A stretch of 64,000 nt of DNA from Escherichia coli. GTDB taxonomy: Bacteria > Pseudomonadota > Gammaproteobacteria > Enterobacterales > Enterobacteriaceae. Positions 8,763-64,000 of this stretch are shown here, in pieces. The stretch is from the NCBI RefSeq assembly GCF_044647545.1, contig NZ_CP172818.1. The stretch is one strand, 5' to 3'. The first letter of the stretch is position 1. Each line of letters opens with the position of its first letter. The notes below the pieces were generated by a model that saw nothing but the letters and a program-made list of their open reading frames with translations, did no database searches and was not told the origin of the DNA. A program made the translations under genes and the position numbers.

Positions 8763-8971
8763 TGCGATTCTCCAGACAGGGCAAATTCCAGCACATATTA
8801 CCCAAACTTATAGGTCGCGACGAGATGACGCGTTAACACTTCTGCAAAATTCAGGATAAATCCAGCCCCCTCACTTTTGGTGAATGGCTGAAGCCAACGT
8901 CATGTAGTGATATGATAAGAAGTATTCGTGTCTGAGATTGTCTCTGACTCCATAATTCGAAGGTTACAGCT

Positions 8972-11923: not shown

Positions 11924-11932
11924 AGGTAAAAC

Positions 11933-13192: not shown

Positions 13193-13206
13193 GAATAAAC
13201 AAGTTT

Positions 13207-13232
13207 AAGAAGTGAGTTAAAACTCACTTCTT
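13207..13232. terminator. Perfect palindrome between convergent waaL and waaU (putative bidirectional terminator)
   Basis: aagaagtgagtt-aa-aactcacttctt inverted repeat overlapping the waaU stop codon. Confidence 0.4.
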
Positions 13233-14297: not shown

Positions 14298-14329
14298 TTT
14301 TATACCATATTATTTTAGTTTCAGGATGA

Positions 14330-15181: not shown

Positions 15182-15251
15182 GATAAACCTGTGAAATAAA
15201 TAACTCCGCTTAAAACTGTCCTGGTGAAGACATGTAATTGTGGGATTTTTT

Positions 15252-15950: not shown

Positions 15951-15967
15951 AATAAACCAGTTAAATG

Positions 15968-16984: not shown

Positions 16985-17023
16985 AATGCTACCCTTATAT
17001 CATTACTTTATAGTTTCCCAGTT

Positions 17024-19122: not shown

Positions 19123-19165
19123 AGAAACTCTCATTAATTGAGTAAAACTCACTGTTTTAACGGTT

Positions 19166-20101
19166 TTATTTGTCTATAAAATCAGAAACAATCGTTGACA
19201 TCATTTTATCTGGACTGAATTTATATAAACTATCATAATCCATTGGTTTAACAGATGAGTTAATAAAATACTCTAACTTATCCCAATCATCATGACCTAT
19301 TATAAAAAAGCGAGATTCACTATAGATTTCTGAACCAAATACATTTATATTATTAGTAATTAATTTTTTATTGAAAAATAGTGCCTCAAGTATACGAAGA
19401 GTCCAGCCAGATTGGTTTTCTTTGGTTATATCAACAATTATATTAGCATTTAATGTTCTTCTAATATTCTCTTCATAAGATATTTGTTTTTCAATCAAAT
19501 ACTTTGAAGTCGTAGATGATGTCTTATCTTTGACAACATTAAAATCTAGCTTACATCCTAGTGTTGTTAATCTCTCGGCTAACTCATTAATTATTTGAAG
19601 ACGCCCTTTATCACGACCAAGGAAAAAACATATTGGCTGGCTGTTATTTTTGTCAGATAAACTATAATTTCTAATTTCATCCATTCCTATAGGAAAAAAT
19701 TGTTCTATTGCCTTGATCTTTTCATTCCCTATAAATCTATGCTCAAAATCATATATAATATCGAAATAATTCGCGTTATCAAGAATAAAATCTTCGCCAA
19801 CAGTATTTCTTAGAAGCAAAACTTTATGACAGTTAATATTTTTTAATATTTGTTTATTGATACCTTTATTAACAACACTGTCATTAATGATAATTATGTC
19901 ATCTTTTTTAATATCATTGAGGTAATGCTTGATGAATAATCGCCCCAGCCATGCATTATCCATCCCTATTTTTGATATTTTTTTATTAATCCAGTTATAT
20001 TTTTTTGGTGTTGTTATATTTTTTATCTTGTACTTTTTTTTCAGGTACTGAATCATTTTTAATTCATAATCTGCAACCCAATTTATAAAATAAATAGTCA
20101 T
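19166..20101 (-). CDS. waaS: LPS core biosynthesis protein WaaS
   Basis: 311 aa ORF, very AT-rich; position and length as K-12 WaaS. Confidence 0.8.
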
Positions 20102-20137
20102 AATAAAGTTAGTTCCAGTACATACTAATAAATATTT

Positions 20138-20935
20138 TTATAATCCTTTGCGTTGTGTTCGCTCTTTAATACGCTCGGCCTTAACGCTTGCCATGTTCAA
20201 TAAATTCTGTTCAAGAGACAATATTTTGCGTAAAGGCATCCCAAAATACACTTTCATAAACCGCCAGATATCCCGCTGAGTCAGGCCGATATTCATCGAA
20301 GAAAAATAAAGCCCAATAAGATCTTTATCGCGCCAACGACGTGGAACGCGCGTGCGAAGCTGCGCCCGGTGCAGGTCAATTACTGAAATTTTTAACTCCT
20401 CTTCCTTACCGGAAAAAGGCAAGTGCAGCAGGAAATGACAGATATAACAGTCACGGTGGTTAATGCCCGCAGCATGCATATCGCGCACCATCGTCGCGAC
20501 ACGCTTAATAAGCATACGCTTTACGCGAACATCTGGTGGGTTGGTCGCCCAGTCAGCACAGTAATCTTCCAGACTGATGGTTGGTGTCAGATCTTCGGTA
20601 ATAATAAACGAGGTTCTGGTCAGCGGATTAATGCCTTTTTCGCCGAATGCCACCCCATACATAGTATCAACGCCGACATCCCGCAGTCGATGAATCGCAT
20701 TCCATTCGCGGTCTGCGCCTAATACTGGCATCCGCAATGAGAGTAAATTTTTGATTATCTCTTTCAGGGTCGTGCCGCGATGCCATTTGAGAAAATAGCT
20801 TTTGCCCGCCATTTCAAAGCGCAGAGTGCGGCGAGTTTCCAGTTCACGAAATACCTCACCCTGCAAGGTTTTAACTTCCTCAAAAGGATCTTTACCGCGC
20901 CATAACGTGGCAAACGGCTCTTTAAGTTCAACCAT
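20138..20935 (-). CDS. waaP: LPS core heptose(I) kinase
   Basis: Trimmed to [14 protein letters not shown] start giving 265 aa; kinase motifs ([11 protein letters not shown]). Confidence 0.9.
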
Positions 20936-30070: not shown

Positions 30071-30108
30071 TATGACGTCCGGCATGATTATTCATCCAGC
30101 GAATATTT

Positions 30109-45305: not shown

Positions 45306-47006
45306 ATGAAATTTATTGGGAAGCTGCTTCTCTACATTTTCATCGCTCTGTTAGTGGTGATCGCTAGCCTCTATTTTCTTCTGCAAACCCGCTGGGGAGC
45401 AGAACATATCAGCGCATGGGTTTCCGAGAATAGCGACTATCATCTGGCCTTCGGTGCGATGGATCACCGTTTTTCCGCGCCATCTCATATCGTGCTGGAG
45501 AACGTCACGTTTGGCCGTGATGGCCAGCCCGCGACCCTGGTAGCAAAAAGTGTCGACATTGCGCTAAGCAGTCGGCAACTGACCGAACCACGCCATGTCG
45601 ATACCATCCTGCTGGAAAACGGGACGCTGAATCTCACCGACCAGACCGCGCCGCTACCGTTCAAAGCCGATCGTCTGCAACTGCGTGATATGGCGTTTAA
45701 TAGCCCGAATAGCGAATGGAAACTGAGCGCGCAGCGGGTAAATGGCGGCGTGGTTCCGTGGTCACCAGAAGCCGGTAAAGTGCTGGGTACGAAGGCGCAG
45801 ATTCAGTTTAGTGCCGGATCGCTTTCGCTCAATGATGTTCCTGCCACCAATGTACTGATTGAAGGCAGTATTGATAACGATCGCGTTACGCTGACTAACC
45901 TGGGTGCCGACATCGCCCGCGGGACATTAACCGGAAACGCGCAGCGTAACGCCGACGGCAGCTGGCAAGTGGAAAATCTGCGGCTGGCGGATATCCGTCT
46001 ACAAAGCGAAAAATCGCTAACCGACTTCTTTGCGCCATTACGCTCTGTCCCGTCGTTGCAGATTGGTCGCCTGGAAGTCATCGACGCTCGTTTGCAAGGT
46101 CCGGACTGGGCGGTGACCGACCTCGATCTCAGCTTGCGCAACATGACCTTCAGTAAAGATGACTGGCAGACACAGGAAGGTAAACTGTCGATGAACGCCA
46201 GCGAGTTTATTTATGGCTCGCTGCATTTATTTGATCCGATTATAAACGCGGAATTTTCCCCGCAGGGCGTAGCACTGCGCCAGTTCACCAGCCGCTGGGA
46301 AGGGGGCATGGTCAGAACGTCAGGGAACTGGTTGCGTGACGGGAAAATGTTGATCCTTGATGATGCGGCAATTGCCGGACTGGAATATACCTTGCCAAAA
46401 AACTGGCAACAGTTGTGGATGGAAACGACACCCGGTTGGTTAAACAACCTGCAACTGAAGAGATTTAGCGCCAGCCGCAATCTGATCATTGATATCGACC
46501 CTGACTTCCCGTGGCAGCTCACCGCGCTCGATGGTTACGGTGCCAACCTGACGCTGGTTACCGATCATAAATGGGGCGTCTGGAGTGGTTCGGCGAATCT
46601 GAATGCCGCCGCCGCAACGTTTAATCGTGTTGATGTCCGTCGTCCGTCGCTGGCGCTGACCGCCAACAGCAGCACGGTGAATATCAGCGAACTGAGTGCA
46701 TTTACTGAAAAAGGCATTCTGGAAGCCACCGCCAGTGTTTCACAAACGCCACAACGTCAGACCCATATCAGCCTGAATGGACGCGGTGTGCCGGTGAATA
46801 TTTTGCAACAGTGGGGATGGCCTGAATTACCGTTGACTGGCGACGGCAATATTCAGCTTACTGCCAGTGGCGATATTCAGGCCAATGTCCCGCTGAAACC
46901 TACGGTTAGCGGGCAATTGCATGCCGTGAACGCCGCAAAGCAGCAAGTGACTCAAACCATGAATGCGGGCGTAGTTTCCAGTGGTGAAGTTACGTCGACG
47001 GAGTAG
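45306..47006 (+). CDS. yicH: AsmA-family protein YicH
   Basis: ORF 45282..47006 begins with GTG; first ATG is at 45306 (MKFIGKLLLYIFIALLVV, N-terminal TM anchor); start is uncertain. Confidence 0.8.
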   Translation: MKFIGKLLLYIFIALLVVIASLYFLLQTRWGAEHISAWVSENSDYHLAFGAMDHRFSAPSHIVLENVTFGRDGQPATLVAKSVDIALSSRQLTEPRHVDTILLENGTLNLTDQTAPLPFKADRLQLRDMAFNSPNSEWKLSAQRVNGGVVPWSPEAGKVLGTKAQIQFSAGSLSLNDVPATNVLIEGSIDNDRVTLTNLGADIARGTLTGNAQRNADGSWQVENLRLADIRLQSEKSLTDFFAPLRSVPSLQIGRLEVIDARLQGPDWAVTDLDLSLRNMTFSKDDWQTQEGKLSMNASEFIYGSLHLFDPIINAEFSPQGVALRQFTSRWEGGMVRTSGNWLRDGKMLILDDAAIAGLEYTLPKNWQQLWMETTPGWLNNLQLKRFSASRNLIIDIDPDFPWQLTALDGYGANLTLVTDHKWGVWSGSANLNAAAATFNRVDVRRPSLALTANSSTVNISELSAFTEKGILEATASVSQTPQRQTHISLNGRGVPVNILQQWGWPELPLTGDGNIQLTASGDIQANVPLKPTVSGQLHAVNAAKQQVTQTMNAGVVSSGEVTSTE

Positions 47007-47315
47007 GTGCAGTAAACATCAATCTCTTCACATTCTGCTCCCAGCAAATGATCAAGATGCAGCAAATCAGCAATATTCTCCGCGCTTAACATCACACCCG
47101 CGCCAGCACGCTTCTCAACATTTATTCTCCATTGCCCCAGCCATTGCTCAAGTAAACGTAAATCACGTTGAATGGTTTTTTCCGAAACATTTAAATAGCC
47201 GCAATCGTAACAATAGTCGTATATTCCCTTCGAGGTAAAAGGAATCGTAATAATCTGTTTTGTCGCGAGGTAATCATTTGCATTTTTACCCTTATCACAG
47301 ATTAAGAAGCCCTAT
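46953..47315 (-). other. Possible gene remnant: open frame without an ATG start containing a DeoR-like helix-turn-helix motif
   Basis: Minus-strand frame reads ...CGYLNVSEKTIQRDLRLLEQWLG... (47141..47197), resembling the VSxxTIRRDLxxLE motif of DeoR-family regulators; frame overlaps the antisense 3' end of yicH and has no in-frame start that would give an ORF of 60 aa or more. Confidence 0.2.
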
Positions 47316-47577
47316 GAGGAAGAGCTTCAGTTGCCATCTCTGAGGGTAAATATAAAGCAGAATAATTTCACAACAATACTCAAAATATGTCCGTAACCCG
47401 GACAGTGATAAAACAAAGCAAGGCGGTTAAGGGATATTTTTCAGCACAGATCACATTTTCGTGATGAATAATCGTGATCATGCTCGCAAATACGATGGAA
47501 GAAATATTTATTACCAGATGTGAGATTATTTACCGGACACGACACAAAACCATTCGTATCCGGCATTCTTCAATAGA

Positions 47578-49896
47578 TTACAACGTAATTGTCAGCGCAT
47601 TCCCTTGAGGCGTCACCACCAGCCCCAGCTCACTTTCAGCCTGCGAACCGCCTTGCAGACCATTTACTTTCACAACATTGCGCAAGCACAGCGTCCAGTT
47701 CTTCGCCACGCCCGCACCATTCACAGTAATTGTGTTGCCAGTACGCGCCGCTTTCAGGGTGAAAAGAACGGAACCATCGGCAGCGGGCACTTCACAGATG
47801 GCTTCATGCCCGTCTTGCAGATTAAAGAGCTGGAATGCCGTGCCTTCGTGCCACGCGTAATCGGGACGTTGCTCGTTGTTGCCCAGCGCCAGTAGGGTGT
47901 TATCACGCACATAAACGGGTAGACTCAGGAAGCCGTGCTGCTGTTTATGCCAGCGACTACCATCGAGTTCATCGTTGTGCCACAGGTGTGTCCAGCGACC
48001 TTCCGGCAAGTAGAACTGCACATCGCCCGCTTCAGTGAACACCGGAGCAACCATCACGTTATCGCCTAACATGTATTGACGGTCAAGGTAATCACAAGCC
48101 GGATCGTCCGGGAACTCCATCATCATGGCCCGCATCATCGGCGTACCCCGGGCGTTTGCACGTGCAGCTTCACGATACAGATACGGCATCATGCGGCATT
48201 TCAGTTGCGTGAAGAAGCGCACCACATCACAGGACTCATCATCATAGGCCCACGGCACACGATAAGATTTGCTGCCGTGTAAACGGCTATGGCTGGAGAG
48301 CAAACCAAACGCGCACCAGCGTTTGTAAACGTGCGCCGGAGCGGTATTCTCAAAGCCGCCGATATCGTGGCTCCAGAAGCCAAAACCAGAAAGGCCAATA
48401 GACAAACCACCGCGCAGGCTTTCCGCCATTGATTCGTAGTTAGCGTAACAGTCGCCACCCCAATGTACCGGGAATTTCTGCGCACCGACGGAGGCCGAGC
48501 GGGCAAACAAGACGGCTTCTTCCTCGCCAACGGTTTCCTTGAGCACGTTCCACACCAGTTCGTTGTAGATGTACGCATAATGGTTATGCATTTTCTGCGG
48601 ATCGGAACCATCAAACCATTGAACATCGGTTGGAATACGTTCGCCAAAGTCGGTCTTAAAGCAATCAACGCCCATCGCGACCAGACCTTTCAGTTTGTCG
48701 GCGTACCATTTGCAGGCATCCGGATTGGTAAAGTCATAAATCGCCAGACCTGGCTGCCATTTATCCCACTGCCACAGCGAACCGTCCGGGCGTTTGAGTA
48801 AATAACCTTTCTCTTGTAACTCTTTAAAGACAGGGGATTTTTGCCCGATATAGGGGTTAATCCAGACGCAGATTTTTAGCCCTTTCGCTTTCAGGCGGCG
48901 GATCATCCCTTCCGGGTCCGGGAAAGTCAGCGGGTCCCACTCAAAATCGCACCACTGGAAGGCTTTCATCCAGAAACAGTCAAAGTGGAAAACATGCAGC
49001 GGCAGATTGCGTTCCGCCATACCATCGATAAAGCTGTTTACCGTCGCTTCGTCGTAGTTGGTGGTAAATGAAGTGGTTAGCCACAGGCCGAAGGACCACG
49101 CGGGCGGCAGCGCCGGACGACCAGTAAAACGGGTATAACTATCAAGTACCGCTTTCGGCGTCGGGCCGTCGATAACAAAGTATTCGAGATATTCACTCTC
49201 AACGCTGAACTGCACTTTGGAGACTTTCTCCGATCCCACTTCAAAAGAGACGCATTGAGGATGATTGACCAGTACCCCATAACCACGGTTAGTCATATAG
49301 AACGGAATATTTTTATACGCCTGTTCAGTACTTGTGCCGCCGTCCCGGTTCCAGGTCTCTACCGTCTGGCCATTGCGCACCAGGGCAGTAAAGCGCTCTC
49401 CCAGACCGTAAACTGTTTCGCCAACGCCAAGATCCAGCCGCTCAAACATATAATTTCGTTGATTATTCGTGTCCTGCACGTAGCCATTATTTTTCACCTG
49501 ACTACCGGTAATACGTTCGCCGTTGCGCAGAAAATCCAGTGACCAGAACTCACCTTTGCTGACACGCGCGCTTAAGTTGCCACTTTTAAACTCAGCGTAA
49601 CGTTCTGTGTTTTCGATTGTGACCTTCACGTCCTGCAAAATATTGAGCGGATAATGAGGACCGTTATTCAGCGCCCCCTGAAAATGCTCAATCCGTACAC
49701 CGACAATACCTTCCTGTGGGGAGAAAAAGCGCAGCGTAAATAAAGGCGTATCAAGCTGCCAGGTACGTTCACGCACATCACGAGGGGCAGCATAGACCAC
49801 CATTTCATTACCCTGCTCTTCAACCTCGAACACCTGAAGCGGGTGAATCAAATTGAGGCCAGGTTGAATCAACCAGTTTCCGTCGCTAATTTTCAT
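47578..49896 (-). CDS. yicI: Alpha-xylosidase (GH31)
   Basis: 772 aa ORF, GH31 catalytic region (WIDMNE-like KTDFGE); downstream of yicJ. Confidence 0.93.
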
Positions 49897-49905
49897 TGCC
49901 GTTCC

Positions 49906-51288
49906 TTAGTTCTGCACTTCTTGAGAGGTGAATTGTTGCTGGCAACGGCGTTTGCCCTGGGCCAGCTGTTCCATAACGGTTTTCAGATTGTGCGTCGTGA
50001 GCGAGTAGTAGCGTTTAGCGATAATCGCGCTCAGCAAGTAACAGATCGCCGGAACAATCGTGAATAGCGCAATAATGATGCTAATCGTGGCGCTGTTCTG
50101 CGCTTTTTCTGCCGCATCATATCCGCCATAAGCCAGCATCCAGCCGATAAGAGCGCCGCCGAAGGCCAACCCCAGTTTGAGCACAAACAGCGTGCCAGCA
50201 AAACTGATCCCGGTCAGGCGTTTACCATTGCACCACTCGCCGTAATCGACGGTATCGGACATCATTACCCACTGGATAGGTGTCACCAGTTGATGCAACA
50301 CACCAATCACGAAGATGAAGACAAACATGGTGATGCTGGCCTGCATAGGAACAAAGAACATCGCGAGGCTAATCACTGCCAGCAGGGCGTTCGTCCACCA
50401 GAAGATAGTGACTTTACATTTCCAGTCGGTCAGCGGTTTCGCCAGTGCGGAACCAATCAGGTTACCCACGCAATAAGTGGTAAGAAAAGCGACAAACACT
50501 TCCGGCGTACCCAAAATCCATGTGACGTAATACATCATCGCCCCGCCGCGTACGCATACCGCCAGAATATTGAAAATGGTTAGTAAACCGACAATACGCC
50601 ACTGGTCGTTTTGCCAGATATCACGTAAATCTTCCCTCATAGACGTCGTTGTAGGTGGTGCTTCAACGCGTTCTTTAGTGGTGAAGAAACAAAATGCCAG
50701 CATCATGAATGCCACCACGGAAAGGACCGCGATACCGCCCTGGAAACCGAGTGGTTTATTATCACCACCAATTAAATTAACCAGCGGCATCATCAGAACA
50801 GTAGAGAGCATGCCTCCCGCGGTCGCCAGCACAAAACGCCAGGATTGCAGCGAGATACGCTGAGTCGGGTCATTGGTGATTACACCACCCAATGCGCAGT
50901 AAGGGATATTGACGATGGTATAAAGTAAGGTAAGTAGGGTGTAAGTAATTGCTGCATAGATCATTTTGCCGTTCATACTGAGATCTGGCGTGCTATAGGC
51001 CAGTACACAGACGATCCCGAATGGCAGTGCGCCAAACAGTACCCACGGACGAAATTTACCCCAGCGAGAGCGCGTTCGATCGGCCAACAACCCCATGCAA
51101 GGATCGGAAATCGCATCCAGTGCACGAGCGACCAAAAACATGGTTCCGACAAATCCGGCAGGAATGCCAAAAATATCGGTATAAAAGAACATCATATATA
51201 ACATTACGTTATCGAAAATAATGTGGCTGGCGGCGTCTCCCATGCCATAACCAATTTTCTCTTTAACGGACAACACTTCACTCTTCAT
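49906..51288 (-). CDS. yicJ: Glycoside-pentoside-hexuronide family transporter YicJ
   Basis: ORF 49906..51345 trimmed to MKSEVLSVKEKIGYGMGD start giving 460 aa; GPH/MFS transporter. Confidence 0.9.
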   Translation of the reverse strand: MKSEVLSVKEKIGYGMGDAASHIIFDNVMLYMMFFYTDIFGIPAGFVGTMFLVARALDAISDPCMGLLADRTRSRWGKFRPWVLFGALPFGIVCVLAYSTPDLSMNGKMIYAAITYTLLTLLYTIVNIPYCALGGVITNDPTQRISLQSWRFVLATAGGMLSTVLMMPLVNLIGGDNKPLGFQGGIAVLSVVAFMMLAFCFFTTKERVEAPPTTTSMREDLRDIWQNDQWRIVGLLTIFNILAVCVRGGAMMYYVTWILGTPEVFVAFLTTYCVGNLIGSALAKPLTDWKCKVTIFWWTNALLAVISLAMFFVPMQASITMFVFIFVIGVLHQLVTPIQWVMMSDTVDYGEWCNGKRLTGISFAGTLFVLKLGLAFGGALIGWMLAYGGYDAAEKAQNSATISIIIALFTIVPAICYLLSAIIAKRYYSLTTHNLKTVMEQLAQGKRRCQQQFTSQEVQN

Positions 51289-51580
51289 CTGCTTTTCCTT
51301 GATGCTATAGGGGTGCTGAGACCGATAACGCATTTTGTAAACCATCCCTGCGAGAGCGAATATTCCGATATCTGGTTATTAATTTATGATTCTTGTTTTA
51401 TGTGATCGTGGTAGCGTAAATTACGCTCATATATCATTGTAAAATATGGGTTTTATATGAATTATAATGCTTTCGTGATAATACGCTGCGTGTATTAGGC
51501 GGAAAAAACTGATCTGGGGGATGTAGAAACTCAAGGAAGTAGCTATAATGCGCCCCGCCTCCATGTAGCAATCGAGGCGC

Positions 51581-51675
51581 GGAAGATCGTCGTCTCCGGT
51601 GAGGCGGCTGGACTTCAAATCCAGTTGGGGCCGCCAGCGGTCCCGGGCAGGTTCGACTCCTGTGATCTTCCGCCA
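51581..51675 (+). tRNA. selC: tRNA-Sec (selenocysteine, anticodon UCA)
   Basis: 95 nt GGAAGATCGTCGTCTCCGGTGAGGCGGCTGGACTTCAAATCCAGTTGGGGCCGCCAGCGGTCCCGGGCAGGTTCGACTCCTGTGATCTTCCGCCA; 8-bp acceptor stem, long variable arm, UCA anticodon. Confidence 0.97.
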
Positions 51676-52313
51676 ATTTGCCTCTTCTGACGTTCTCCAA
51701 CCCCTTGTAATACTGTCAATCCAGATATTTTCTACTGCTCAATATTCAATCGGCTTCAGGAATACCTGATCAAAAGTTTTGTGATGGACGATGAGCGACT
51801 GAAGAATCCGCCTGTCGGTTCTTCTGTCCTCGAACGCATCCGCGATATTCGCGCCAGCATGCGCCGTGTTTATTTGCAGGTGATTTGCCCCCCTGCTGAC
51901 TCTCAGCCAACTGTATCGCCATTAAGGTGAAGATGTTGTTTTACACGCCCCAGAACACCCTTTTTTTATACGACGATTCTATTCCTTTAACCGCTGGCGA
52001 AAAAAACTGACCTGTAAACTTCACCAATAATCAGACTGCCATCAAGATTAATTTGTTCATTTAATATATCAAATAAATTTGTTTTATTTTTACTATCAAA
52101 AATAGCTCATTGTCTTACTATAATTAATATATAAATTCGGTGATTAACTCTTAACATGCTTTTGCTAATAATCTCAATTGCTGGCCCTATAATATTGCGC
52201 TAGCATTGCTTTCTGGTTGTATCAGCGATACTCAAAAAATCTTAATACAATACTCATTCGACTGGTACTTATTTGTAACTCAGTTATATTTTGTCGCCCG
52301 GTGATTCAGAAGA

Positions 52314-53498
52314 ATGCAAAAAACGGCTACCACTCCATCAAAAATACTTGATCTCACTGCCGCGGCATTTTTACTTGTCGCCTTTCTGACGGGTATTGCG
52401 GGCGCTCTCCAGACTCCCACCCTAAGTATATTCCTCGCAGATGAACTGAAAGCCCGTCCTATAATGGTAGGTTTTTTCTTCACCGGTAGCGCTATTATGG
52501 GAATTCTGGTCAGTCAATTTCTGGCAAGGCACTCCGATAAACAAGGCGACCGTAAATTACTGATCCTGCTATGTTGCTTATTTGGAGTGTTGGCCTGCAC
52601 TCTTTTTGCGTGGAATCGCAACTACTTCATTCTCCTCTCTACGGGCGTACTTCTGAGTAGTTTTGCTTCCACTGCAAACCCGCAAATGTTCGCCCTCGCC
52701 CGTGAACACGCCGACAGAACAGGCCGTGAGACGGTCATGTTCAGTACATTTTTACGTGCTCAGATCTCGCTTGCCTGGGTTATCGGGCCACCGCTCGCTT
52801 ATGAGCTGGCAATGGGATTTAGTTTTAAAGTGATGTATCTCACCGCAGCCATCGCATTTGTTGTTTGCGGGCTGATAGTCTGGTTGTTTTTGCCATCAAT
52901 ACAAAGAAATATTCCTGTCGTTACCCAACCCGTAGAAATTTTACCCTCCATCCATAGAAAGCGGGATACACGGCTACTTTTTGTGGTCTGTTCAATGATG
53001 TGGGCGGCGAATAATCTCTACATGATAAATATGCCGCTATTTATTATTGATGAACTGCATCTAACCGATAAACTGGCTGGAGAAATGATTGGTATTGCTG
53101 CCGGTCTGGAAATTCCGATGATGTTAATCGCAGGCTATTACATGAAACGTATTGGCAAGCGACTATTAATGCTCATTGCTATCGTGAGTGGTATGTGTTT
53201 TTACGCCAGCGTACTCATGGCGACGACTCCGGCAATTGAGCTGGAATTGCAAATTCTAAATGCCATTTTCCTTGGTATTCTCTGTGGTATCGGCATGCTT
53301 TATTTTCAGGATCTGATGCCTGAAAAAATAGGCTCTGCGACAACGTTATATGCAAATACCTCACGCGTCGGCTGGATTATCGCCGGCTCTGTTGACGGAA
53401 TTATGGTTGAAATCTGGAGCTACCACGCGTTGTTCTGGCTGGCGATAGGGATGTTGGGTATTGCGATGATTTGCCTGCTGTTTATTAAAGATATTTAG
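52314..53498 (+). CDS. setC: Sugar efflux transporter C (MFS)
   Basis: 394 aa MFS ORF; first gene after selC as in the K-12 arrangement. Confidence 0.9.
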   Translation: MQKTATTPSKILDLTAAAFLLVAFLTGIAGALQTPTLSIFLADELKARPIMVGFFFTGSAIMGILVSQFLARHSDKQGDRKLLILLCCLFGVLACTLFAWNRNYFILLSTGVLLSSFASTANPQMFALAREHADRTGRETVMFSTFLRAQISLAWVIGPPLAYELAMGFSFKVMYLTAAIAFVVCGLIVWLFLPSIQRNIPVVTQPVEILPSIHRKRDTRLLFVVCSMMWAANNLYMINMPLFIIDELHLTDKLAGEMIGIAAGLEIPMMLIAGYYMKRIGKRLLMLIAIVSGMCFYASVLMATTPAIELELQILNAIFLGILCGIGMLYFQDLMPEKIGSATTLYANTSRVGWIIAGSVDGIMVEIWSYHALFWLAIGMLGIAMICLLFIKDI

Positions 53499-53608
53499 CT
53501 CACCAGTCTGGGCTAAGAAAAATCGGCGTGGCGCAAACAGAGCCATCCTCGCCATTTTTGCTATCATGCCTGCATACATAAACGACAAAACAGTATGCAG
53601 AGGGAAAA

Positions 53609-54532
53609 ATGGGTTCCACCAGAAAGGGGATGCTGAACGTTCTGATTGCCGCCGTGTTGTGGGGAAGTTCAGGGGTCTGCGCGCAATACATCATGGAGCA
53701 AAGCCAGATGTCGTCGCAGTTTTTGACTATGACGCGTTTGATATTCGCCGGTTTGATTCTGCTGACGCTGTCATTTGTTCATGGCGATAAAATCTTTTCT
53801 ATTATTAACAATCACAAAGATGCCATTAGTCTGCTGATTTTTTCCGTGGTTGGCGCGCTAACCGTACAGCTCACTTTTTTGCTAACCATCGAAAAATCGA
53901 ACGCAGCCACGGCAACGGTGCTGCAATTCCTCTCACCGACGATTATCGTCGCCTGGTTCTCACTGGTGCGTAAATCCCGCCCGGGCATTCTGGTTTTTTG
54001 CGCTATTTTGACATCGCTGGTCGGGACTTTTTTATTGGTGACACACGGTAATCCGACGTCATTATCGATCTCTCCTGCCGCGTTATTCTGGGGAATTGCC
54101 TCGGCATTTGCTGCGGCATTCTATACCACCTATCCCTCAACGCTGATTGCCCGCTATGGCACGTTACCGGTCGTCGGCTGGAGTATGCTCATTGGTGGTC
54201 TGATCCTGCTGCCATTTTATGCCAGACAAGGGACAAATTTTGTGGTTAATGGCAGTTTGATTCTGGCGTTTTTTTATTTGGTGGTCATTGGTACGTCCCT
54301 GACATTTAGTCTGTACCTGAAAGGAGCACAATTAATTGGCGGTCCAAAAGCCAGCATTTTAAGCTGTGCAGAACCATTAAGTAGCGCGCTGCTCTCTTTG
54401 CTGTTACTGGGGATCACATTCACATTACCGGACTGGCTGGGAACGCTGCTGATTCTGTCATCAGTGATTTTGATTTCAGTGGATTCCCGTCGCCGCGCCA
54501 GAAAAATAAATCGTCCGGCGCGGGATGAGTGA
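53609..54532 (+). CDS. yicL: EamA/DMT family inner membrane transporter YicL
   Basis: 307 aa ORF with two EamA-like repeats. Confidence 0.88.
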
Positions 54533-54535
54533 GAA

Positions 54536-55354
54536 TTACCAGCCAGGCACCGCGCCACCGTTAAAGATGGTTTCTGCCGCTTTAGCGACTTCGGATGATT
54601 GATAAGATTGCAGAAATTCCTTCACGTTTTCTGCATTCTTATTATCTTCCCGTGCTACCAGAATGTTCACATACGGCGAATTTTTATCTTCAATAAATAC
54701 GCTGTCGTGCACCGGAGAAAGTCCGGTCTGCTGAATGTAAGTGGTGCTGATAATCGCCACATCAACTTTGGGATCATCCAGTACGCGCGGGAGCTGCGCC
54801 CCCTCGAGTTCCATAATCTGCAAATGACGAGGATTATCGGTTATATCCAGCGCGGTAGGTAATAACCCTTTTCCCTCTTTCAGAATAATTAGCTTCTCTT
54901 TTTGCAACAGTAAAAGCGCGCGACCAAGGTTGGTCGGGTCGTTGGGGATCGCCACTGTCGCGCCTTCTTTTATTTGCGCCACGGTTTTGATTTTTTTGGA
55001 ATAACCCGCCATAGGGAAGACAAACGTATTTCCCACCGCTACCAGTTTATAACCATGCGCCTGATTATCTTGTTCAAGAAAGGGCCGATGCTGGAAGACA
55101 TTCGCATCAAGCTCGCCATGATTTGTCGCATCGTTCGGTAGCAACGAACCGCTAAATCCTACCAGTTCAACATCGAGGCCATATTTCTCTTTTGCCACCT
55201 TTTTAGCGACTTCCGCGACATCTTGTTCTGCGCCATTTATAACGCCAACTTTAATGTGTTTTGCATCGCTGCTACTCTGGTCGCAACCTGCCAGCAGAAT
55301 TCCTGCCAGCAATAATGCGGCCCCCGCCCGTAGATGATGTGTTGTCAGTTTCAT
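54536..55354 (-). CDS. nlpA: Lipoprotein 28 (methionine-binding NlpA/MetQ family)
   Basis: 272 aa ORF with lipobox LLAGC in the signal peptide. Confidence 0.92.
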   Translation of the reverse strand: MKLTTHHLRAGAALLLAGILLAGCDQSSSDAKHIKVGVINGAEQDVAEVAKKVAKEKYGLDVELVGFSGSLLPNDATNHGELDANVFQHRPFLEQDNQAHGYKLVAVGNTFVFPMAGYSKKIKTVAQIKEGATVAIPNDPTNLGRALLLLQKEKLIILKEGKGLLPTALDITDNPRHLQIMELEGAQLPRVLDDPKVDVAIISTTYIQQTGLSPVHDSVFIEDKNSPYVNILVAREDNKNAENVKEFLQSYQSSEVAKAAETIFNGGAVPGW

Positions 55355-55562
55355 TTTTTATCCTTTTTTTAATCATTAACTGACTATAATGGCAAGAACA
55401 CTACGATTTAAAAAACGAAAAGCTATCGAATAGAAGAAAAAGGTATAAAAAACTGGCACTTCTTACTGACCACGCAAACACCTTTCGTACAGCATGATGA
55501 GAGCGGTAAAAGCAAACTACACTTATGCTTCATTCGATGCACATTTGCAGAAGGTTGCCGCT

Positions 55563-55856
55563 ATGAAGCCAACGATGCTACTCATGATTACCGTATTCCT
55601 GACTTTTCCAGCCATTTCTCAGGCCGAGTCGCCATTCAGCTCGCTACAGTCGGCAAAAGAGAAAACCACGGTATTGCAAGATTTACGTAAAATTTGCACG
55701 CCACAGGCGTCATTATCAGACGAAGCGTGGGAAAAATTAATGTTGTCTGATGAGAGTAACAAACAACATATCCGCGAAGCTATTGTGGCGATGGAGCGTA
55801 ATAATCAGAATAACTACTGGGAAGCGCTGGGTAAGGTGGAATGCCCGGATATGTGA
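55563..55856 (+). CDS. yicS: Small secreted protein YicS
   Basis: ORF trimmed to MKPTMLLMITVFLTFPAISQA (signal peptide) giving 97 aa. Confidence 0.8.
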   Translation: MKPTMLLMITVFLTFPAISQAESPFSSLQSAKEKTTVLQDLRKICTPQASLSDEAWEKLMLSDESNKQHIREAIVAMERNNQNNYWEALGKVECPDM

Positions 55857-55894
55857 ACCGCTACAACTACTGACCAACGCTTCTTTACCTGATA

Positions 55895-57085
55895 TCAGGA
55901 TTTCTTCATTTTCACCTTTGCGGTGACCAATAACGCCGTCAGCAACATCAATGTGCCGGACAACATCAACGGCGAAGTCAGACCAATATTATCCAGCGCA
56001 TAACCGCCGATTGCCGCGCCACAGGTATTAGCAAGCTGAATAACCGCCACCTGAATAGACCCGGCTTTTTCTGCCTGATCGGCCAGTGAGCGGGTGATCC
56101 ACGTTGACCAGCCGACAGGAACCAATGCAAAAGTTAGCCCCCAGATAATCGCCACGCCGGTAGCAACGATTTTATCGCTTCCCCACAACGTCAGCACCAA
56201 CGCACTCACAGCCAGTATTAACGGCGCGCCTGCTAAGGCCAGTTTTACCGAACGTTTAAGAATGAACGACGAAAGCGACGTACCAATAAAGCTGGCGATA
56301 CCAAAACTCAACAGCACCAGCGTTAAGCCATCCACGCCGAATCCCGCCAGGTTCATATACACCGGGCGAATATACGTGAAGAAAGCAAACTGCCCGGCGA
56401 AAGACATGAAGATGGCGATCATCCCTGCCATCACACCCGGACGTTGTAATAAGCGGAAAGTATTTTGTTTCTGATGCGAGGGTTCGCCTGGCAGCGAAGG
56501 CAATGATTTGATAATCCAGAAAATACACAGCACGCCCATCACCGCCGCCGCATTAAAGACATTGCGCCAACCGATAAGCTCGCCTAAAAAACTGCCCAAC
56601 GGTGCGGCAATCACCAGCGCAATAGAAACCGCGCCGAAGATCACCGACAGCGCCTTCGGCACCGTACGCGGCGGTACCAGACGCATGGTCAGCGACGCCG
56701 ACATCGCCCAGAACCCACCCAGCGCCAGCCCCAGACAGGCACGACCGATTAAAAGCAAACTGAATGAGTTAGCAAAGGAAACCAGCAAGCAGGAGAGCGT
56801 CAGCAAAACGGCAAACAAAATAACAACATAGCGGCGGTCAGTGGCCTGAATGGTCTGGGTAATAAACAAACTGGCAAACATTGCCACAAAGGCGGTCACG
56901 GTCACCGATTGCCCGGCAACCCCTTCCGAAATGCCTAAATCCTGGGCCATTGGCGTCAACAAACTGACGGGCAAAAACTCAACGATAATCAGACAGGCGA
57001 CGCAAAACGCCACCGAGAAAACGGCTGACCAGTTCGGTCGGGTGATGGCATCCGCGCCGCGGTTTTCGGCAATAAATTCACTCAT
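55895..57085 (-). CDS. nepI: Purine ribonucleoside efflux pump NepI (MFS)
   Basis: ORF 55895..57133 trimmed to [19 protein letters not shown] start giving 396 aa. Confidence 0.9.
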
Positions 57086-57349
57086 GGTGTTACCCGTGGC
57101 ATGTTTCAGGGGAAAAGCCGACCACTTTAACATTGAAATGTGTGACGCATTTAACGTTTTTGCAACTTTTACGGTGTTGTGGGAAAAGTTCGAGGCTGCT
57201 CGAAGAAATAAAAATCATAGGGCAAGGTGATATGCATTTTCGCAATGGGGTTGGGAATAAGGGATAAAGTATTCATTGTGATATACTTTAATAACAGGAT
57301 CTCAACGATATACGCGTGTTTAAAACCAAATATTTTGCAAGGGAAGCCA

Positions 57350-57990
57350 GGTCTCAGCAAAAAAGAAAAAAAGTTGCCGGTTTAGAAACGGAACAAGGTA
57401 AAGCTGATGTACTTGGTGGTGGCGTTTTTAAAAAGCGCCTTCACCGAAATCGTGAGCGTGCAATTATTCTGCAAAAGGGGAAAAAAATTGTTTTTACACT
57501 TTTTTATATAAAAAAAAGGATATGTCAAAAATAAATAGCAAGAAACGGCTTGGTTTCCGTAAACTCCAAAACATTTTCCCCTCCCTACCAAAACCCAAAC
57601 AAAAAAAAAGATTAAAACAAAAAAACAAACAGAAATCCCCTAGACCCGAAAAAAAAAAATAAAAAACCCCCGCTTTTGGGCATTCCCAACCCCGCGGCCC
57701 GGGTTTCCCCCCCCCATGCTTTTTCTCCCCAAAAAAAACGTACTTTTACAAAACCCCCCCCACCAGCACGCAAAAACTACAACCCGGTGAAAAAAAAAAA
57801 ACACGGGAAAAAAAAAAAAGGAAGCCACCCCCCTTCGCCCCCATCCCAAAACCAGCGTTTCAACAGCACAAAAAAAGGAAAAGGGGCGCAAACCCCCCAG
57901 GGGTTCTTTAAAAATCCCCAGCATGGTGGAAAAAAAAGGGGGGGGGGGGGGGGAGTAAAAAAAAAAGAAAAAAGTCATACCAGCCCCAAT
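57350..57990. repeat. Low-complexity homopolymer-rich tract (A8-A12, C5-C8 and a G19 run); probably sequencing or assembly artifact
   Basis: Direct inspection: successive long poly-A, poly-C and poly-G runs, strand-asymmetric composition, no coherent coding frame; unlike any other intergenic region in the window. Confidence 0.6.
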
Positions 57991-58062
57991 ACCGGATGCG
58001 GCGTGAACGCCTAATCCACCCTACAGGTCAGGCGCGGTCTGTAGGCTGATAAGACGAAGCGG
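57991..58062. repeat. Degenerate REP-like (BIME) palindromic element
   Basis: accggatgcggcgtgaacgcctaatccaccctacaggtcaggcgcggtctgtaggctgataagacg resembles the canonical REP gccggatgcggcgtgaacgccttatccggcctaca but with several mismatches. Confidence 0.45.
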
Positions 58063-58064
58063 TT

Positions 58065-58517
58065 TTAATGCAGCCAGTGAACGCCCTCGGCAGGCTGAAA
58101 GAACGCGTTATAGCGCATCTGAAAAGCATTAATATCCTGCATTTCAGGTTCGGTTTCGCGCAGAAAACCCAGCGCCAGCCTGACCTGAGCATCAGTAATC
58201 GGCGCGGCAAGGCGGGCTTTTTGTAAAATCCGATGCCATTGCAGCATGTTCTGTTCGCTACCATCGACAATGACAATTTGCCAGATGAGCAACACCTGCG
58301 CGGCGTTTTGCAGGTGCGACTCATCCGGGCGATGCAAATAACGTAAAAATTCGTCACCGGCTGACTTTCCCATTTGATCGACCATCGACTCCACGGGTAC
58401 GACATCGATGTTCAGCCGATCGCTGAGACGGCGAATCGCTTTTCTGGCCCCGGATGTCAGCACCCGAAAACCAATCACAAACACTACCGCCAGCGTGGCG
58501 AGCATTATCCAGATCAT
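58065..58517 (-). CDS. yicN: DUF1198 family protein YicN
   Basis: ORF 58065..58544 trimmed to MIWIMLATLAVVFVIG start giving 150 aa. Confidence 0.85.
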   Translation of the reverse strand: MIWIMLATLAVVFVIGFRVLTSGARKAIRRLSDRLNIDVVPVESMVDQMGKSAGDEFLRYLHRPDESHLQNAAQVLLIWQIVIVDGSEQNMLQWHRILQKARLAAPITDAQVRLALGFLRETEPEMQDINAFQMRYNAFFQPAEGVHWLH

Positions 58518-58569
58518 GAGTTCTCCTGCGTAATCAGAACTCATAATATCTGGAAACCCTCGCCAGTTA

Positions 58570-59904
58570 CTAATCCACCAGAATAATCTTCAGTGCAAAC
58601 AGAGCTGCGACCACCACCACACACAGGTTCAGATCGCGCCAGCGCCCGGTGCACACTTTCATGATGCAGTACGACATAAAGCCGAGTGCAATCCCTTCGG
58701 TGATCGAGAAAGTAAAGGGCATCATCACCGTGGTAATAAATGCGGGCACCGATTCGGTAAAATCATCCCAGTTAACGCGCGCCAGGCTCGAAGTCATCAG
58801 CACGCCAACAAAGATTAACGCTCCGGCGGTTGCGTAAGGAGGAACCATCGCCACCAGCGGTGAGAAGAACATAACCAACAGGAACATAACGCCGACCACA
58901 ACCGCAGTCAGCCCCGTGCGACCACCGACAGCCACACCTGAAGTACTTTCAATATAGGCGGTAACAGACGAGGTACCGATAAACGCACCCGCCACCGAAC
59001 TGACGCTATCAACATACAGCGCCTTATTCATATTGGGGAATTTACCGTTACTATCTATTAAGCCAGCTTTATCAGTTACACCAATTAATGTTCCTGATGA
59101 ATCAAATAAGTTGATCAGCATAAAGGAGAAAATGATACCGGCGAGTTCAAGTGATAACGCGCCGCTCAAATCCACTTCACCAATGACGCCGCTAATATCA
59201 GGCGGAATGGAATAGACGCCGCTAAAATGAACATCACCGAAAAATAATCCACAGCAAGACGTCACCACAATAGAAACAAGCACCGCGGCATGAAAATGAC
59301 GTGATGACAACACGGTTATAATAAAAAACCCTAAAATACCTAACAACACGCCGTGAGAACTTAAATCGCCAATCATCACCAGGGTGTCTTTATTGGCGAC
59401 AATAACGCCAGTATTTTTTAATCCCATTAAGGCGATAAATAATCCGATTCCGCTGGTGATACCAATACGTAAACTTAATGGAATGTTGGAGATCATCCAG
59501 TACCGGATACGAAACAGCGTGAGCAAAAATAGCCCAACTGCGCCCCAGAATATCGCGCCCATCCCGGTCTGCCAGGAGATACCCATCGCCCCCACGACCA
59601 CGAACGCAAAGAAGGCGTTCAGCCCCATTGCCGGAGCCAGCGCCACGGGTAAGTTAGCAAATATCCCCATCGCAATACTGCCGATACCGGCAATCAAACA
59701 GGTGGTAACAAACACCACTTTCGGGTCCATTTGTGCCGCGCCGAGGATTTGCGGGTTCACAAAAACGATGTACACCATGGTTAAAAAAGTGGTCATCCCC
59801 GCAATCAATTCTGTGCGGACGGTGGTCCCATGCTGAGGTAGTTTAAATAATCGCGAAAGCGTCCCTGATTCATTACTCACGTAATCGGTATTGTCATTAT
59901 TCAT
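58570..59904 (-). CDS. adeQ: Adenine permease (NCS2/AzgA family)
   Basis: ORF trimmed to MNNDNTDYVSNESGTL start giving 444 aa. Confidence 0.9.
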   Translation of the reverse strand: MNNDNTDYVSNESGTLSRLFKLPQHGTTVRTELIAGMTTFLTMVYIVFVNPQILGAAQMDPKVVFVTTCLIAGIGSIAMGIFANLPVALAPAMGLNAFFAFVVVGAMGISWQTGMGAIFWGAVGLFLLTLFRIRYWMISNIPLSLRIGITSGIGLFIALMGLKNTGVIVANKDTLVMIGDLSSHGVLLGILGFFIITVLSSRHFHAAVLVSIVVTSCCGLFFGDVHFSGVYSIPPDISGVIGEVDLSGALSLELAGIIFSFMLINLFDSSGTLIGVTDKAGLIDSNGKFPNMNKALYVDSVSSVAGAFIGTSSVTAYIESTSGVAVGGRTGLTAVVVGVMFLLVMFFSPLVAMVPPYATAGALIFVGVLMTSSLARVNWDDFTESVPAFITTVMMPFTFSITEGIALGFMSYCIMKVCTGRWRDLNLCVVVVAALFALKIILVD

Positions 59905-60078
59905 TTTTTTGTCCATTGGAGGAGATTTAATCCCTTGCTTTTGTAAAACAAATGACAACAACGGTTCAGTGATAATTATCACATTTCAATTGCACATTAA
60001 TGGATATTCTTTAATAATCTCGCGACGTTTCTTTATGATAAATAATAATCAAATTGATAAAATCAAAATGAGAAAAAT

Positions 60079-61845
60079 ATGAATAATTCTATTAACCATA
60101 AATTTCATCACATTAGCCGGGCTGAATACCAGGAATTGTTAGCCGTTTCCCGTGGAGACGCTGTTGCCGATTATATTATTGATAATGTCTCTATTCTCGA
60201 CCTGATCAATGGCGGAGAAATTTCCGGCCCAATTGTGATTAAAGGACGTTACATTGCCGGTGTTGGCGCAGAATACGCTGATGCTCCGGCGTTGCAGCGG
60301 ATTGATGCCCGCGGCGCAACGGCGGTGCCAGGGTTTATTGATGCTCACCTGCATATTGAATCCAGCATGATGACGCCGGTCACTTTTGAAACCGCGACCC
60401 TGCCGCGCGGCCTGACGACCGTTATTTGCGACCCTCATGAAATCGTCAACGTGATGGGCGAAGCCGGATTCGCCTGGTTTGCCCGCTGTGCCGAACAGGC
60501 AAGGCAAAACCAGTACTTACAGGTCAGCTCTTGCGTACCCGCTCTGGAAGGCTGCGATGTTAACGGTGCCAGTTTTACCCTTGAACAGATGCTCGCCTGG
60601 CGGGACCATCCGCAGGTTACCGGCCTTGCAGAAATGATGGACTACCCTGGCGTAATTAGCGGGCAGAATGCGCTGCTCGATAAACTGGATGCATTTCGCC
60701 ACCTGACGCTGGACGGTCACTGCCCGGGTTTGGGTGGTAAAGAACTTAACGCCTATATTGCTGCGGGTATTGAAAACTGCCACGAAAGTTATCAGCTGGA
60801 AGAAGGACGCCGGAAATTGCAACTCGGCATGTCGTTGATGATCCGTGAAGGGTCCGCAGCCCGCAATCTCAACGCGCTGGCACCGTTGATCAACGAATTT
60901 AACAGCCCGCAATGCATGCTCTGTACCGATGACCGTAACCCGTGGGAGATCGCCCATGAAGGACACATCGATGCCTTAATTCGCCGCCTGATCGAACAAC
61001 ACAATGTACCGCTGCATGTGGCATATCGCGTAGCCAGCTGGTCGACGGCGCGCCATTTTGGTCTGAATCACCTCGGCTTACTGGCACCCGGCAAGCAGGC
61101 CGATATCGTCCTGTTGAGCGATGCGCGTAAGGTCACGGTGCAGCAGGTACTGGTGAAAGGCGAGCCGATCGATGCGCAAACCTTACAGGCGAAAGAGTCG
61201 GCGAGACTGGCACAATCCGCTCCGCCGTATGGCAATACCATTGCCCGCCAGCCTGTTTCCGCCAGCGACTTTGCCCTGCAATTCACGCCCGGAAAACGCT
61301 ATCGGGTCATTGACGTCATCCATAACGAATTGATTACCCACTCCCGCTCCAGCGTCTACAGCGAAAACGGTTTTGATCGCGATGATGTGTGCTTTATTGC
61401 CGTTCTTGAGCGTTACGGACAACGACTGGCTCCGGCCTGTGGTTTACTCGGCGGCTTTGGCCTGAATGAAGGTGCGCTGGCGGCGACGGTCAGCCATGAC
61501 AGCCATAATATTGTGGTGATAGGTCGTAGCGCAGAAGAGATGGCGCTGGCGGTCAATCAGGTGATTCAGGATGGCGGCGGGCTGTGCGTGGTCCGTAACG
61601 GTCAGGTACAAAGTCATCTACCGTTGCCCATTGCCGGGCTAATGAGCACCGACACGGCGCAGTCACTGGCGGAGCAAATTGACGCCTTGAAAGCCGCCGC
61701 CCGTGAATGCGGTCCGTTACCCGATGAGCCGTTTATTCAGATGGCGTTTCTTTCCCTGCCAGTGATCCCCGCGCTGAAACTAACCAGTCAGGGGCTGTTT
61801 GATGGCGAGAAGTTTGCCTTCACTACGCTGGAATTCACGGAATAA
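60079..61845 (+). CDS. ade: Adenine deaminase
   Basis: 588 aa ORF, amidohydrolase metal-binding motifs ([10 protein letters not shown]); divergent from adeQ. Confidence 0.93.
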
Positions 61846-61846
61846 T

Positions 61847-61873
61847 AAAAAAAAGCCCGGCGTCATGCCGGGC
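61847..61873 (-). terminator. Rho-independent terminator of uhpT
   Basis: Minus-strand gcccggcatgacgccgggc hairpin followed by T8, 19 nt after the uhpT stop. Confidence 0.7.
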
Positions 61874-61891
61874 AAAAGTCACCAGTTACGT

Positions 61892-63283
61892 TTATGCCAC
61901 TGTCAACTGCTGAATTTTTTTCTCGCGGCGGATTTTGCGTTCTTCCATCACCGCCACTATCGCCATCAGGCAGATACAACCAATCGCGGCGATATCCAGC
62001 GCGGCGAAGGTGCCTGCCCAGCCGGTAAGGCCAAATACCGGCGTCCCATCGGCAATCATTCCCAGACCTAACTTGGCAAAGCTGTCACCAATCAGGTAAG
62101 CGAAGGTGCCTTTAATACCATCGGCAGCGCCAATCGCTTTTTTAGGTACAAAGCCAACAGCAGCTACACCAATCAACAATTGCGGGCCAAAGACCAGGAA
62201 ACCCAACGCAAAGAGAGAAGCAAGGTAGATATATTCGTTGCTGGCGTGTTGATACACACCGAGCGTGGCGATAATCAGCGCCAGCGCGATACAGGCCACC
62301 AGGCCACGGCGACCGTTCGCCAGGTCAGAGAGCCAGCCCCACAGCAGCGTACCGACCAGCGCACCAGCTTCAAACAGCGTAAAGCCCTGAATCGCCACCG
62401 CTTTAGAGAGTTTCAGTTCCTGGAACGCATACACGGTTGACCACTGGTCGATACCAATACGCACCACATAGAGGAAAATGTTGGCAAAGCACAGCAGCCA
62501 GATCACTTTGTTTTTCAGCACATACTCAACAAAGATCTGCCACTTGGTCATATCGGTAGATTCTGTCTCTTTATCCTCTTCACTGATCTCCTCGCCAAAC
62601 AGCTCTTCAGCTTTGCCGAGGCCATAAGATTCCGGGGAGTCGCTGCCGTAACGCAGACCGATAAAACCAACAATCAGCGCGATAATCGACGGGAAAATAA
62701 ACATGCCGATGACATGACCATCGAACAGGTAATTTGCGCCGAACAGCGCCACACCTGCTGCGCCTGCACCACCAAGGTTGTGAGAAATGTTCCAGAAACC
62801 GAGGAATGTCCCGCGTTTACGACGCGGCGTCCATTTGGTGATGGTGGAGTAACTGCACGAACCGCCGGTACTCTGGAAAAAGCCGCTTAAGGCGTAGAAG
62901 GCAATCATCAGGAACAGGCTAACCGAGCCGCTGCCCATACTGGCGCTGAAGCCCAGCATACAAATGGCAGACAGGATCAGCATGAACGGCAGGAATTGTT
63001 TGGTGTTTTTGCCGTCGGCGTAGTAAGAAACCAGCGTTTTACCCACGCCATAAGTGATGGAGAAGCCCAGGCCGATCATCCCCAGCTGCGTCATGCTCAA
63101 CCCGTAGGTCGAGATCATGTCGTTCTGCGCGATGTTAAAGTTCTTGCGAATCAGGTACATCGTAAGGTAGCCGATAAAGACCACCAGGTAGGATTGCATG
63201 AACGGTTTGAACCACATTTTGCGCCGCACTTCGAGCGGAAGGTCCAGGGTCGGCTTGCGAACCTGGTTTAAGAAAGCCAGCAT
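61892..63283 (-). CDS. uhpT: Hexose-6-phosphate:phosphate antiporter
   Basis: 463 aa MFS organophosphate:Pi antiporter ORF starting [24 protein letters not shown]. Confidence 0.95.
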
Positions 63284-63420
63284 GGGTTACTCCTGAAATG
63301 AATACCTGCGTGAGGCATGCATTGTAAAAATCAGCAGCAAATCAGGCCTGAGATAGCGTCCAGGCAAAACCTGGAAAATTTCTTAGTTTTGCCGGATATG
63401 AAGTGAAAAGGTGAGATGCA
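63284..63420 (-). promoter_or_regulatory. uhpT promoter region (expected UhpA and CRP sites; exact sites not mapped here)
   Basis: 137 bp intergenic segment between the uhpC stop and uhpT start; assignment from known uhp locus organisation, not from motif mapping. Confidence 0.45.
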
Positions 63421-64000
63421 TCACGCTTCTCGCGGTGTCTGGGCGTTCAAAAAGGGCAGTAATAGCAGTGCGGAAATCCCGGCGGCGATGGCGATAACCA
63501 CAAAAAATCCGCTCCAGTGCCAGGTATCGAGTACTTTCGCCAGCGGCCAACCAGCAAGCGACGCACCAAGATAAGCAAACAAGCCGACAAATCCCGTCGC
63601 CGCCCCTGCTGCCTCTTTGTGGGAACACTCTGCCGCCGCCATGCCGATTAACATCTGCGGGCCAAAGACAAAAAAACCAATGGTGAAGAAGCAGGTTGCC
63701 TGCATCACGTAGCTGGCAAATGGCATCAGCCACAGCGAGCCGACTGAAAGCAAAATTCCGGCAGCGAAAATCAAATTCATCGGCCCGCGGTTGCCGTTAA
63801 AGAGTTTGTCCGAGCCCCAACCCGCTACCAGCGCACCGATAAATCCGCCCAGTTCAAACATCGTCACAGCCGTATTCGCCGTGACCAGATCGACGCCCAG
63901 CGTCTCGGACATATACAAATTGCCCCAGTCGTTGATCGCCGCCCGAACCACATAGACCAGCACATAGCAAAACGAAAGTAGCCAGATATACGGATTCAGC
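63421..64000 (-). CDS. uhpC: Glucose-6-phosphate sensor membrane protein UhpC, C-terminal part; 5' end lies beyond the window end
   Basis: Minus-strand frame open from the window end to a stop at 63421; MFS protein paralogous to UhpT; synteny. Confidence 0.9.
   Translation of the reverse strand, partial: LNPYIWLLSFCYVLVYVVRAAINDWGNLYMSETLGVDLVTANTAVTMFELGGFIGALVAGWGSDKLFNGNRGPMNLIFAAGILLSVGSLWLMPFASYVMQATCFFTIGFFVFGPQMLIGMAAAECSHKEAAGAATGFVGLFAYLGASLAGWPLAKVLDTWHWSGFFVVIAIAAGISALLLLPFLNAQTPREA

Follow-up and report, generated by a model that had tools for sequence, protein, structure and literature searches.

A homopolymer-rich tract between nepI and yicN in an Escherichia coli assembly, probably a technically corrupted RelE/HTH toxin-antitoxin cassette

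Known counterparts of the nepI-yicN locus

The space between nepI and yicN occurs in E. coli in two forms. K-12 has an empty site of about 40 bases, compared with about 810 in strains that bear the cassette. An example of the cassette-bearing form is MS 21-1, whose cassette encodes the proteins WP_000128917.1 and WP_000125643.1. The stretch of E. coli DNA analysed here, 64 kb long and called the window throughout, has the flanking genes and the REP element in common with K-12 but is of the cassette-bearing type. With the MS 21-1 cassette it shares the position, the flanks, the length (within 4%), the register and the N-terminal half of the toxin. In contrast to cassettes of the MS 21-1 type, however, the copy in the window is only about 76% identical and keeps neither frame intact, whereas natural copies are 95-100% identical. 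A literature search for a nepI-yicN toxin-antitoxin system found nothing relevant.

Two other kinds of known system resemble the tract found at this position. Contingency loci of Haemophilus, Neisseria, Campylobacter and Helicobacter have long mononucleotide runs in common with the window, although in those loci a single run lies in or upstream of an otherwise intact gene and its length is polymorphic between strains. The window instead has 15 runs and no intact gene, and the homologous loci of 1716 other genomes are free of such homopolymer runs and carry mixed sequence; a contingency locus was rejected on these grounds. Untrimmed low-quality read tails, produced by peak broadening in capillary sequencing or by loss of phase in flow or cycle chemistries, show errors that are confined and one-directional, an abrupt end, copying of neighbouring bases and deletions without insertions, all of which are also seen in the window. 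They differ from it in that the accuracy in the window plateaus near 65% instead of collapsing, and in that a simple blur explains little extra.

The tract and the cassette underneath

Fifteen of the 48 homopolymer runs of at least 7 bases in the whole window sit in 57340-57995, a density far beyond chance. By base, these 15 runs comprise 12 of A, two of C and one of G. Between 57501 and 57999, 44-56% of the bases in each 200-base interval belong to runs of at least 4, compared with a window-wide mean of 7% (sd 6%). The strong strand asymmetry described in the initial annotation is borne out by the composition (A 261 vs T 107; C 156 vs G 112), as is its view of the two predicted ORFs as nonsense, since both of them (57640-57978 on the minus strand and 57676-58014 on the plus strand) encode 112 aa of low-complexity translation. 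The longest runs are G16 (57938-57953), C9 and A12. The A runs do reach the 12 bases first reported, whereas the longest C run had been given as C8 and the single G run as G19, both of which needed correction.

Alignment to three reference loci (L001, L002 and L003) places the limits of the abnormal interval at 57273-57988, a length of 716 bases. The right end is thus practically where it had first been set (57990), but the abnormality starts further left than 57350. The tract is indeed rich in runs but not uniformly so, as 57391-57470 is normal. The features of the locus, with the evidence for each in brackets, are the following.

55895..57085, minus strand: nepI, purine ribonucleoside efflux pump, intact, forming the left flank (ORF; annotation in relatives; 0 differences from FDAARGOS_497 over the 1369 bases of 55904-57272)
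57180..57272, plus strand: undamaged left end of the DNA specific to the cassette, ahead of the toxin gene and missing in K-12 (three-way alignment; K-12 homology stops near 57179, identity to FDAARGOS_497 continues through 57272)
57273..57277, plus strand: first window-specific discrepancy, a 3-base deletion and 2 substitutions, with 1 more substitution at 57333 (the three reference loci mutually agree and the window differs)
57316..57658, plus strand: remnant of the RelE-family toxin gene (mapped through the reference alignment; GTG start at 57316 or ATG at 57361, depending on the annotation; stop at 57656-57658)
57359..57390, plus strand: early burst of errors with a 9-base deletion, TGCAATGACAGATGAAGAGTTGTGCCGGGCCATT becoming GCAAAAAAGAAAAAAAG/TTGCCGGTT (alignments; identity 0.72 in bins)
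57391..57470, plus strand: clean stretch within the reported tract, equal to the intact toxin gene (alignments; binned identity)
57471..57988, plus strand: main corrupted stretch (binned identity; neighbour-copy statistic; run-by-run comparison with the reference)
57642..57958, plus strand: remnant of the HTH antitoxin gene, with no open frame left in the window (mapped through the reference alignment)
57938..57953, plus strand: G16 run, lying over the reference stretch GGGCTGGAGGTGCTGC, which is 56% G
57991..58062, strand not assigned: REP element, intact (identical to FDAARGOS_497 and MS 21-1)
58065..58517, minus strand: yicN (DUF1198), intact, forming the right flank (ORF; annotation in relatives; identical right flank)

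With 56900-58400 as the query, full-length matches were found in 1715 of 5426 complete E. coli genomes. The matched genomes have two genes between nepI and yicN, annotated as "type II toxin-antitoxin system RelE/ParE family toxin" and "helix-turn-helix domain-containing protein". The tract alone recovered 1716 of the 5426 genomes at 76% identity, at one place each and always on the chromosome, and the intact MS 21-1 cassette recovered the same 1716 genomes at 95-100% identity. Judged by these identities, the copy in the window is a gross outlier in divergence. The tract and the cassette align end to end and in register, at the same position between nepI and yicN. Read from these alignments and annotations, the cassette underneath the tract is a known, annotated locus of predicted type II toxin-antitoxin function, and the idea that the tract has no known counterpart in E. 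coli does not hold, since 1716 of the 5426 complete genomes have a RelE/HTH cassette here. The initial annotation had proposed aligning the interval to the nepI-yicN region of finished genomes and expected ordinary intergenic sequence there; this alignment points to an artefact as anticipated, but the counterpart consists of two genes.

In the relatives, the toxin gene comes first and the HTH antitoxin gene second, with an overlap of 17 bases. The intact toxin homologue matches the Pfam family RelE (PF06296) with E = 4.8e-40 over 111 of its 117 residues. The window has no intact RelE-domain toxin ORF: what remains is an ORF of 72 aa (57316-57534), 62% identical to the N-terminal 73 residues of the toxin (BLASTP E = 4e-27). 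The claim that the tract lacks any coherent frame is therefore correct for its right-hand three quarters, but not for this part. The intact antitoxin homologue has 107 aa and matches HTH_3 at 1.2e-7 and MqsA_antitoxin at 1e-5; its C-terminal region is MqsA/NadS-like, below the NCBIfam cut-offs. The window likewise lacks a whole HTH-domain antitoxin ORF that overlaps the toxin gene: no such frame exists at 57642-57958. We ascribe the loss of both intact ORFs to a fault of the data rather than of the strain.

Two further observations concern the cassette in the relatives. An inverted repeat, AAAGTAT-N13-ATACTTT, lies upstream of the toxin gene and is a candidate operator, the first lesion of the window (57273-57277) falling in its spacer. 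In FDAARGOS_497, the toxin gene of the cassette (6465-6772 of L002) is annotated as frameshifted, with GATTACAC in place of the GATTAACAC of MS 21-1.

The DNA on both sides of the tract is intact. On the right, all 6011 bases of 57990-64000 match at least 12 complete genomes at 100.0% identity, among them FDAARGOS_497, ST648, MS6198 and ECONIH1, and most genomes with this identical right flank are listed with an intact RelE/HTH cassette at the locus. The REP element lies within these 6011 bases, and the suggestion that base-call degradation extends into it (57991..58062) is contradicted by its identity. It does differ from the K-12 REP, but the differences are common to those same genomes, at least 12 in number, and so do not reflect degradation. 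An Rfam search gave no RNA family at its gathering score; over the REP element, 57974-58021 on the minus strand gave a sub-threshold match to naRNA4, a REP-derived nucleoid-associated RNA (25.9 bits vs a gathering score of 59.5). Overall, 57273-57988 contains 206 differing columns, compared with 0 in 7381 flanking bases (Fisher p = 8e-231). Because the flanks are identical to those of the relatives, ordinary divergence and pseudogene decay are excluded.

Other differences from close relatives in the window

The window is about 100% identical to genomes of the ST648 type, in pieces split by islands that it lacks. A search with 47000-57340 had put its identity to any E. coli at no more than 97%; this was rejected, as the ranking favoured contiguous coverage. 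The 396-aa NepI of the window is very common, and the 10 places returned for it were all K-12-type empty sites, with about 95% DNA identity. The segment 31000-55858 is 100.0% identical to the same genomes in the search table, while base-level alignment leaves three single-base indels in 47200-47381.

These indels (47200, 47282 and 47381) fall within 365 bases after a junction at 47016/47017, at sites where at least 12 relatives mutually agree. Set against the closest relatives, the junction marks a 6.7-kb deletion, and none of the complete E. coli genomes shares it. The absent 6.7 kb form an island with lyxose isomerase, ROK, aldolase, PTS-fructose and BglG-antiterminator genes. The interval 47016-47400 could be a second poor assembly join, or could reflect decay of the truncated BglG gene.

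At 55858-55903, the window is without an 18-kb eip/eilA/iatC island that its closest relatives carry between yicS and nepI, and has a K-12-like spacer of 43 bases instead. The island of the relatives contains type III secretion translocon and chaperone genes, eilA and the 10.5-kb inverse autotransporter gene iatC/air. The difference at 55903 gives the NepI of the window its 396-aa, K-12-like end in place of a 394-aa end. Further differences were seen against FDAARGOS_497. About 25 bases (30072-30096) are unmatched between slmA and pyrE, where a gene annotated there as "reverse transcriptase family protein" is absent from the window. In the kbl-rfaD spacer (8749-8917), three changes lie within 170 bases: 1 substitution, a deletion of 5 bases and an insertion of 1 base. 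The waa (LPS core) region, 11863-20241, is unmatched, with DNA of 99.9-100% identity on both sides; to judge from this arrangement, the window presumably has a different LPS core type acquired by recombination.

Pattern of errors, its explanation and its consequences

The differences from the cassette are distributed unevenly along the tract. From about 57471, the identity per 40 columns is 0.90, 0.88, 0.70, 0.68, 0.68, 0.62, 0.62, 0.70, 0.70, 0.65, 0.82, 0.62, 0.68 and 0.42, and it returns to 1.00 from 57989. By this binned identity, errors increase along the plus strand until accuracy stays poor throughout, peak in the last bin and stop abruptly. Within 57355-57990 there are 168 substitutions and 27 deletions, with 0 insertions. 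Transversions (98) outnumber transitions (70), and the true base is retained at 91% of A, 74% of C, 55% of G and 57% of T positions.

The wrong bases are mostly copies of true neighbours. The miscalled base matches a true base at +-1 in 84.5% of substitutions (shuffle null 54.7 +- 3.8%) and one within +-2 in 94.6% (shuffle null 74.5 +- 3.2%). Because slippage of the alignment could inflate this figure, we also generated artificial copies, garbled at matching position-specific rates with the observed substitution spectrum and deletions, and realigned them; copying at +-1 then reached 44.3 +- 3.6%, with a maximum of 53%, compared with the observed 84%. Neither side is clearly preferred as the source of the copied base (91 left vs 83 right). 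All 15 runs of at least 7 bases overlie reference sequence in which the base of the run is already the plurality (44-75%), as in GAAGCAA read as GAAAAAA or GGGCTGGAGGTGCTGC read as G16. A Gaussian blur of the reference, widening along the read and with base-specific weights, raised the identity to the window from 79.0% to 81.7%. The error process is not captured by such a simple blur, which is not used as evidence.

Taken together, the confinement of the differences between identical flanks, their one-directional rise to an abrupt end and the neighbour-copying miscalls argue that the nepI-yicN RelE/HTH toxin-antitoxin cassette is present at 57273-57988 in a technically corrupted form, a reading to which we give a probability of about 0.9 from the sequence comparison. 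The initial proposal of a technical artefact carried into the assembly is supported by these features and by the garbled cassette still lying in register. The tract is almost certainly a data-quality defect and not new biology, as far as comparison with the relatives can tell. Where the window differs, an isolated base has usually given way to the locally dominant one, with some bases dropped and none added, as a base caller would do on meeting neighbouring signals that are no longer resolved or in phase.

The route by which the corruption arose can be stated with less assurance, and we lean somewhat towards the tail of a single read. A single read, contributing about 716 called bases from around 57270 rightwards on the plus strand, may have begun poorly, failed locally at bases 85-115, recovered for about 80 bases and finally lost resolution over a long tail. 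The assembly would have kept it untrimmed, to span an interval that no other read covered, until good sequence resumes at 57989, immediately ahead of the REP element. A capillary or a flow-based read would fit about equally, and the sequence does not fix the platform. By analogy with capillary traces, the early lesions would correspond to the start of a read, where calls are unreliable, and the burst at bases 85-115 to a failure of the dye-blob kind; in flow chemistry, an overcall beside an undercall could mimic a neighbour-copying substitution. Counting against a read tail, the identity plateaus near 65% for about 400 bases with the register kept, which is cleaner than many tails, and a read whose good part spans no more than about 80 bases would be unusually poor.

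An artefact that came about otherwise, through failure of consensus or polishing at very low coverage of noisy long reads, or through gap-filling or other software, is a less likely but reasonable possibility. The comparative evidence shows corruption and not its route, and single-base indels (47200, 47282, 47381 and 8917) make up most of the other differences between the window and its closest relatives, a predominance that would suit an indel-prone platform. The smooth one-directional build-up over about 700 bases and its abrupt end resemble a single read instead, and PacBio errors are insertion-rich, whereas the tract has 0 insertions. Nanopore sequencing shortens homopolymers and is not known to create them, and we know of no raw long-read errors that make long runs from mixed sequence in register. 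The more specific suggestion in the initial annotation of no-signal poly-G calls carried into the assembly, taken here as those of a two-colour Illumina instrument, has a probability close to nil and was rejected. It could draw on the G16 close to the end of the tract, but this is the only G run among the 15 long ones, in which A (12) and C (2) dominate, and it overlies an originally G-rich stretch. Moreover, the 716 affected bases exceed any Illumina read, and the underlying sequence is readable throughout.

That the tract is genuine, the cassette having been destroyed by locally targeted hypermutation that turned mixed sequence into homopolymers and left a slippage-prone pseudogene, we consider very improbable. 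Toxin-antitoxin cassettes do decay, and the frameshift annotated in the toxin gene of FDAARGOS_497 is an instance, but otherwise nothing speaks positively for it. It would have to accommodate about 200 changes in 716 bases beside none in the 7381 flanking bases, a transversion-dominated spectrum that copies neighbouring bases, a one-directional build-up with an abrupt end for which there is no biological rationale, and the fact that nothing similar occurs in any of the 1716 natural copies. That real DNA was rewritten into 15 slippage-prone runs with the register kept, in the cassette only and with untouched flanks, is more improbable still. Replication slippage was rejected as the agent, as it lengthens existing runs by adding bases, whereas the tract has 0 insertions and is 27 bases shorter than the original. 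The pattern is also the opposite of retroelement-driven adenine mutagenesis: a target of a diversity-generating retroelement was rejected, since A is the best-retained base (91%) and the window holds a single copy of the cassette, with no template copy.

Searches for the tract itself gave no second instance. The GTDB representative genomes lack an exact 79-base piece of it and the JGI metagenomes an exact 59-base piece, none of the complete RefSeq E. coli genomes contains the exact tract, and three ORFs of the tract were absent, by exact look-up, from about 15 billion predicted proteins. These absences are weak evidence, as the strain has perhaps never been sequenced again.

Reading the tract as a corrupted copy of the cassette, 57273-57988 is unreliable and should not be annotated, the two ORFs of 112 aa and the ORF of 72 aa being spurious or truncated products of bad calls. 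The approach also offers a test that needs no reads for homopolymer tracts without a frame, namely to align them to relatives and check whether the wrong bases copy true neighbours. The tract itself is of little biological significance. The strain most likely carries an intact cassette of about 743 bases instead of 716, which would be 99-100% identical to that of, for example, FDAARGOS_497, where the locus lies at about 1380360-1381210 of NZ_CP033850.1. Its toxin gene would measure about 309-354 bases and its antitoxin gene 324. It should be scored as cassette-positive at nepI-yicN; surveys would otherwise miss the cassette or log a bogus pseudogene.
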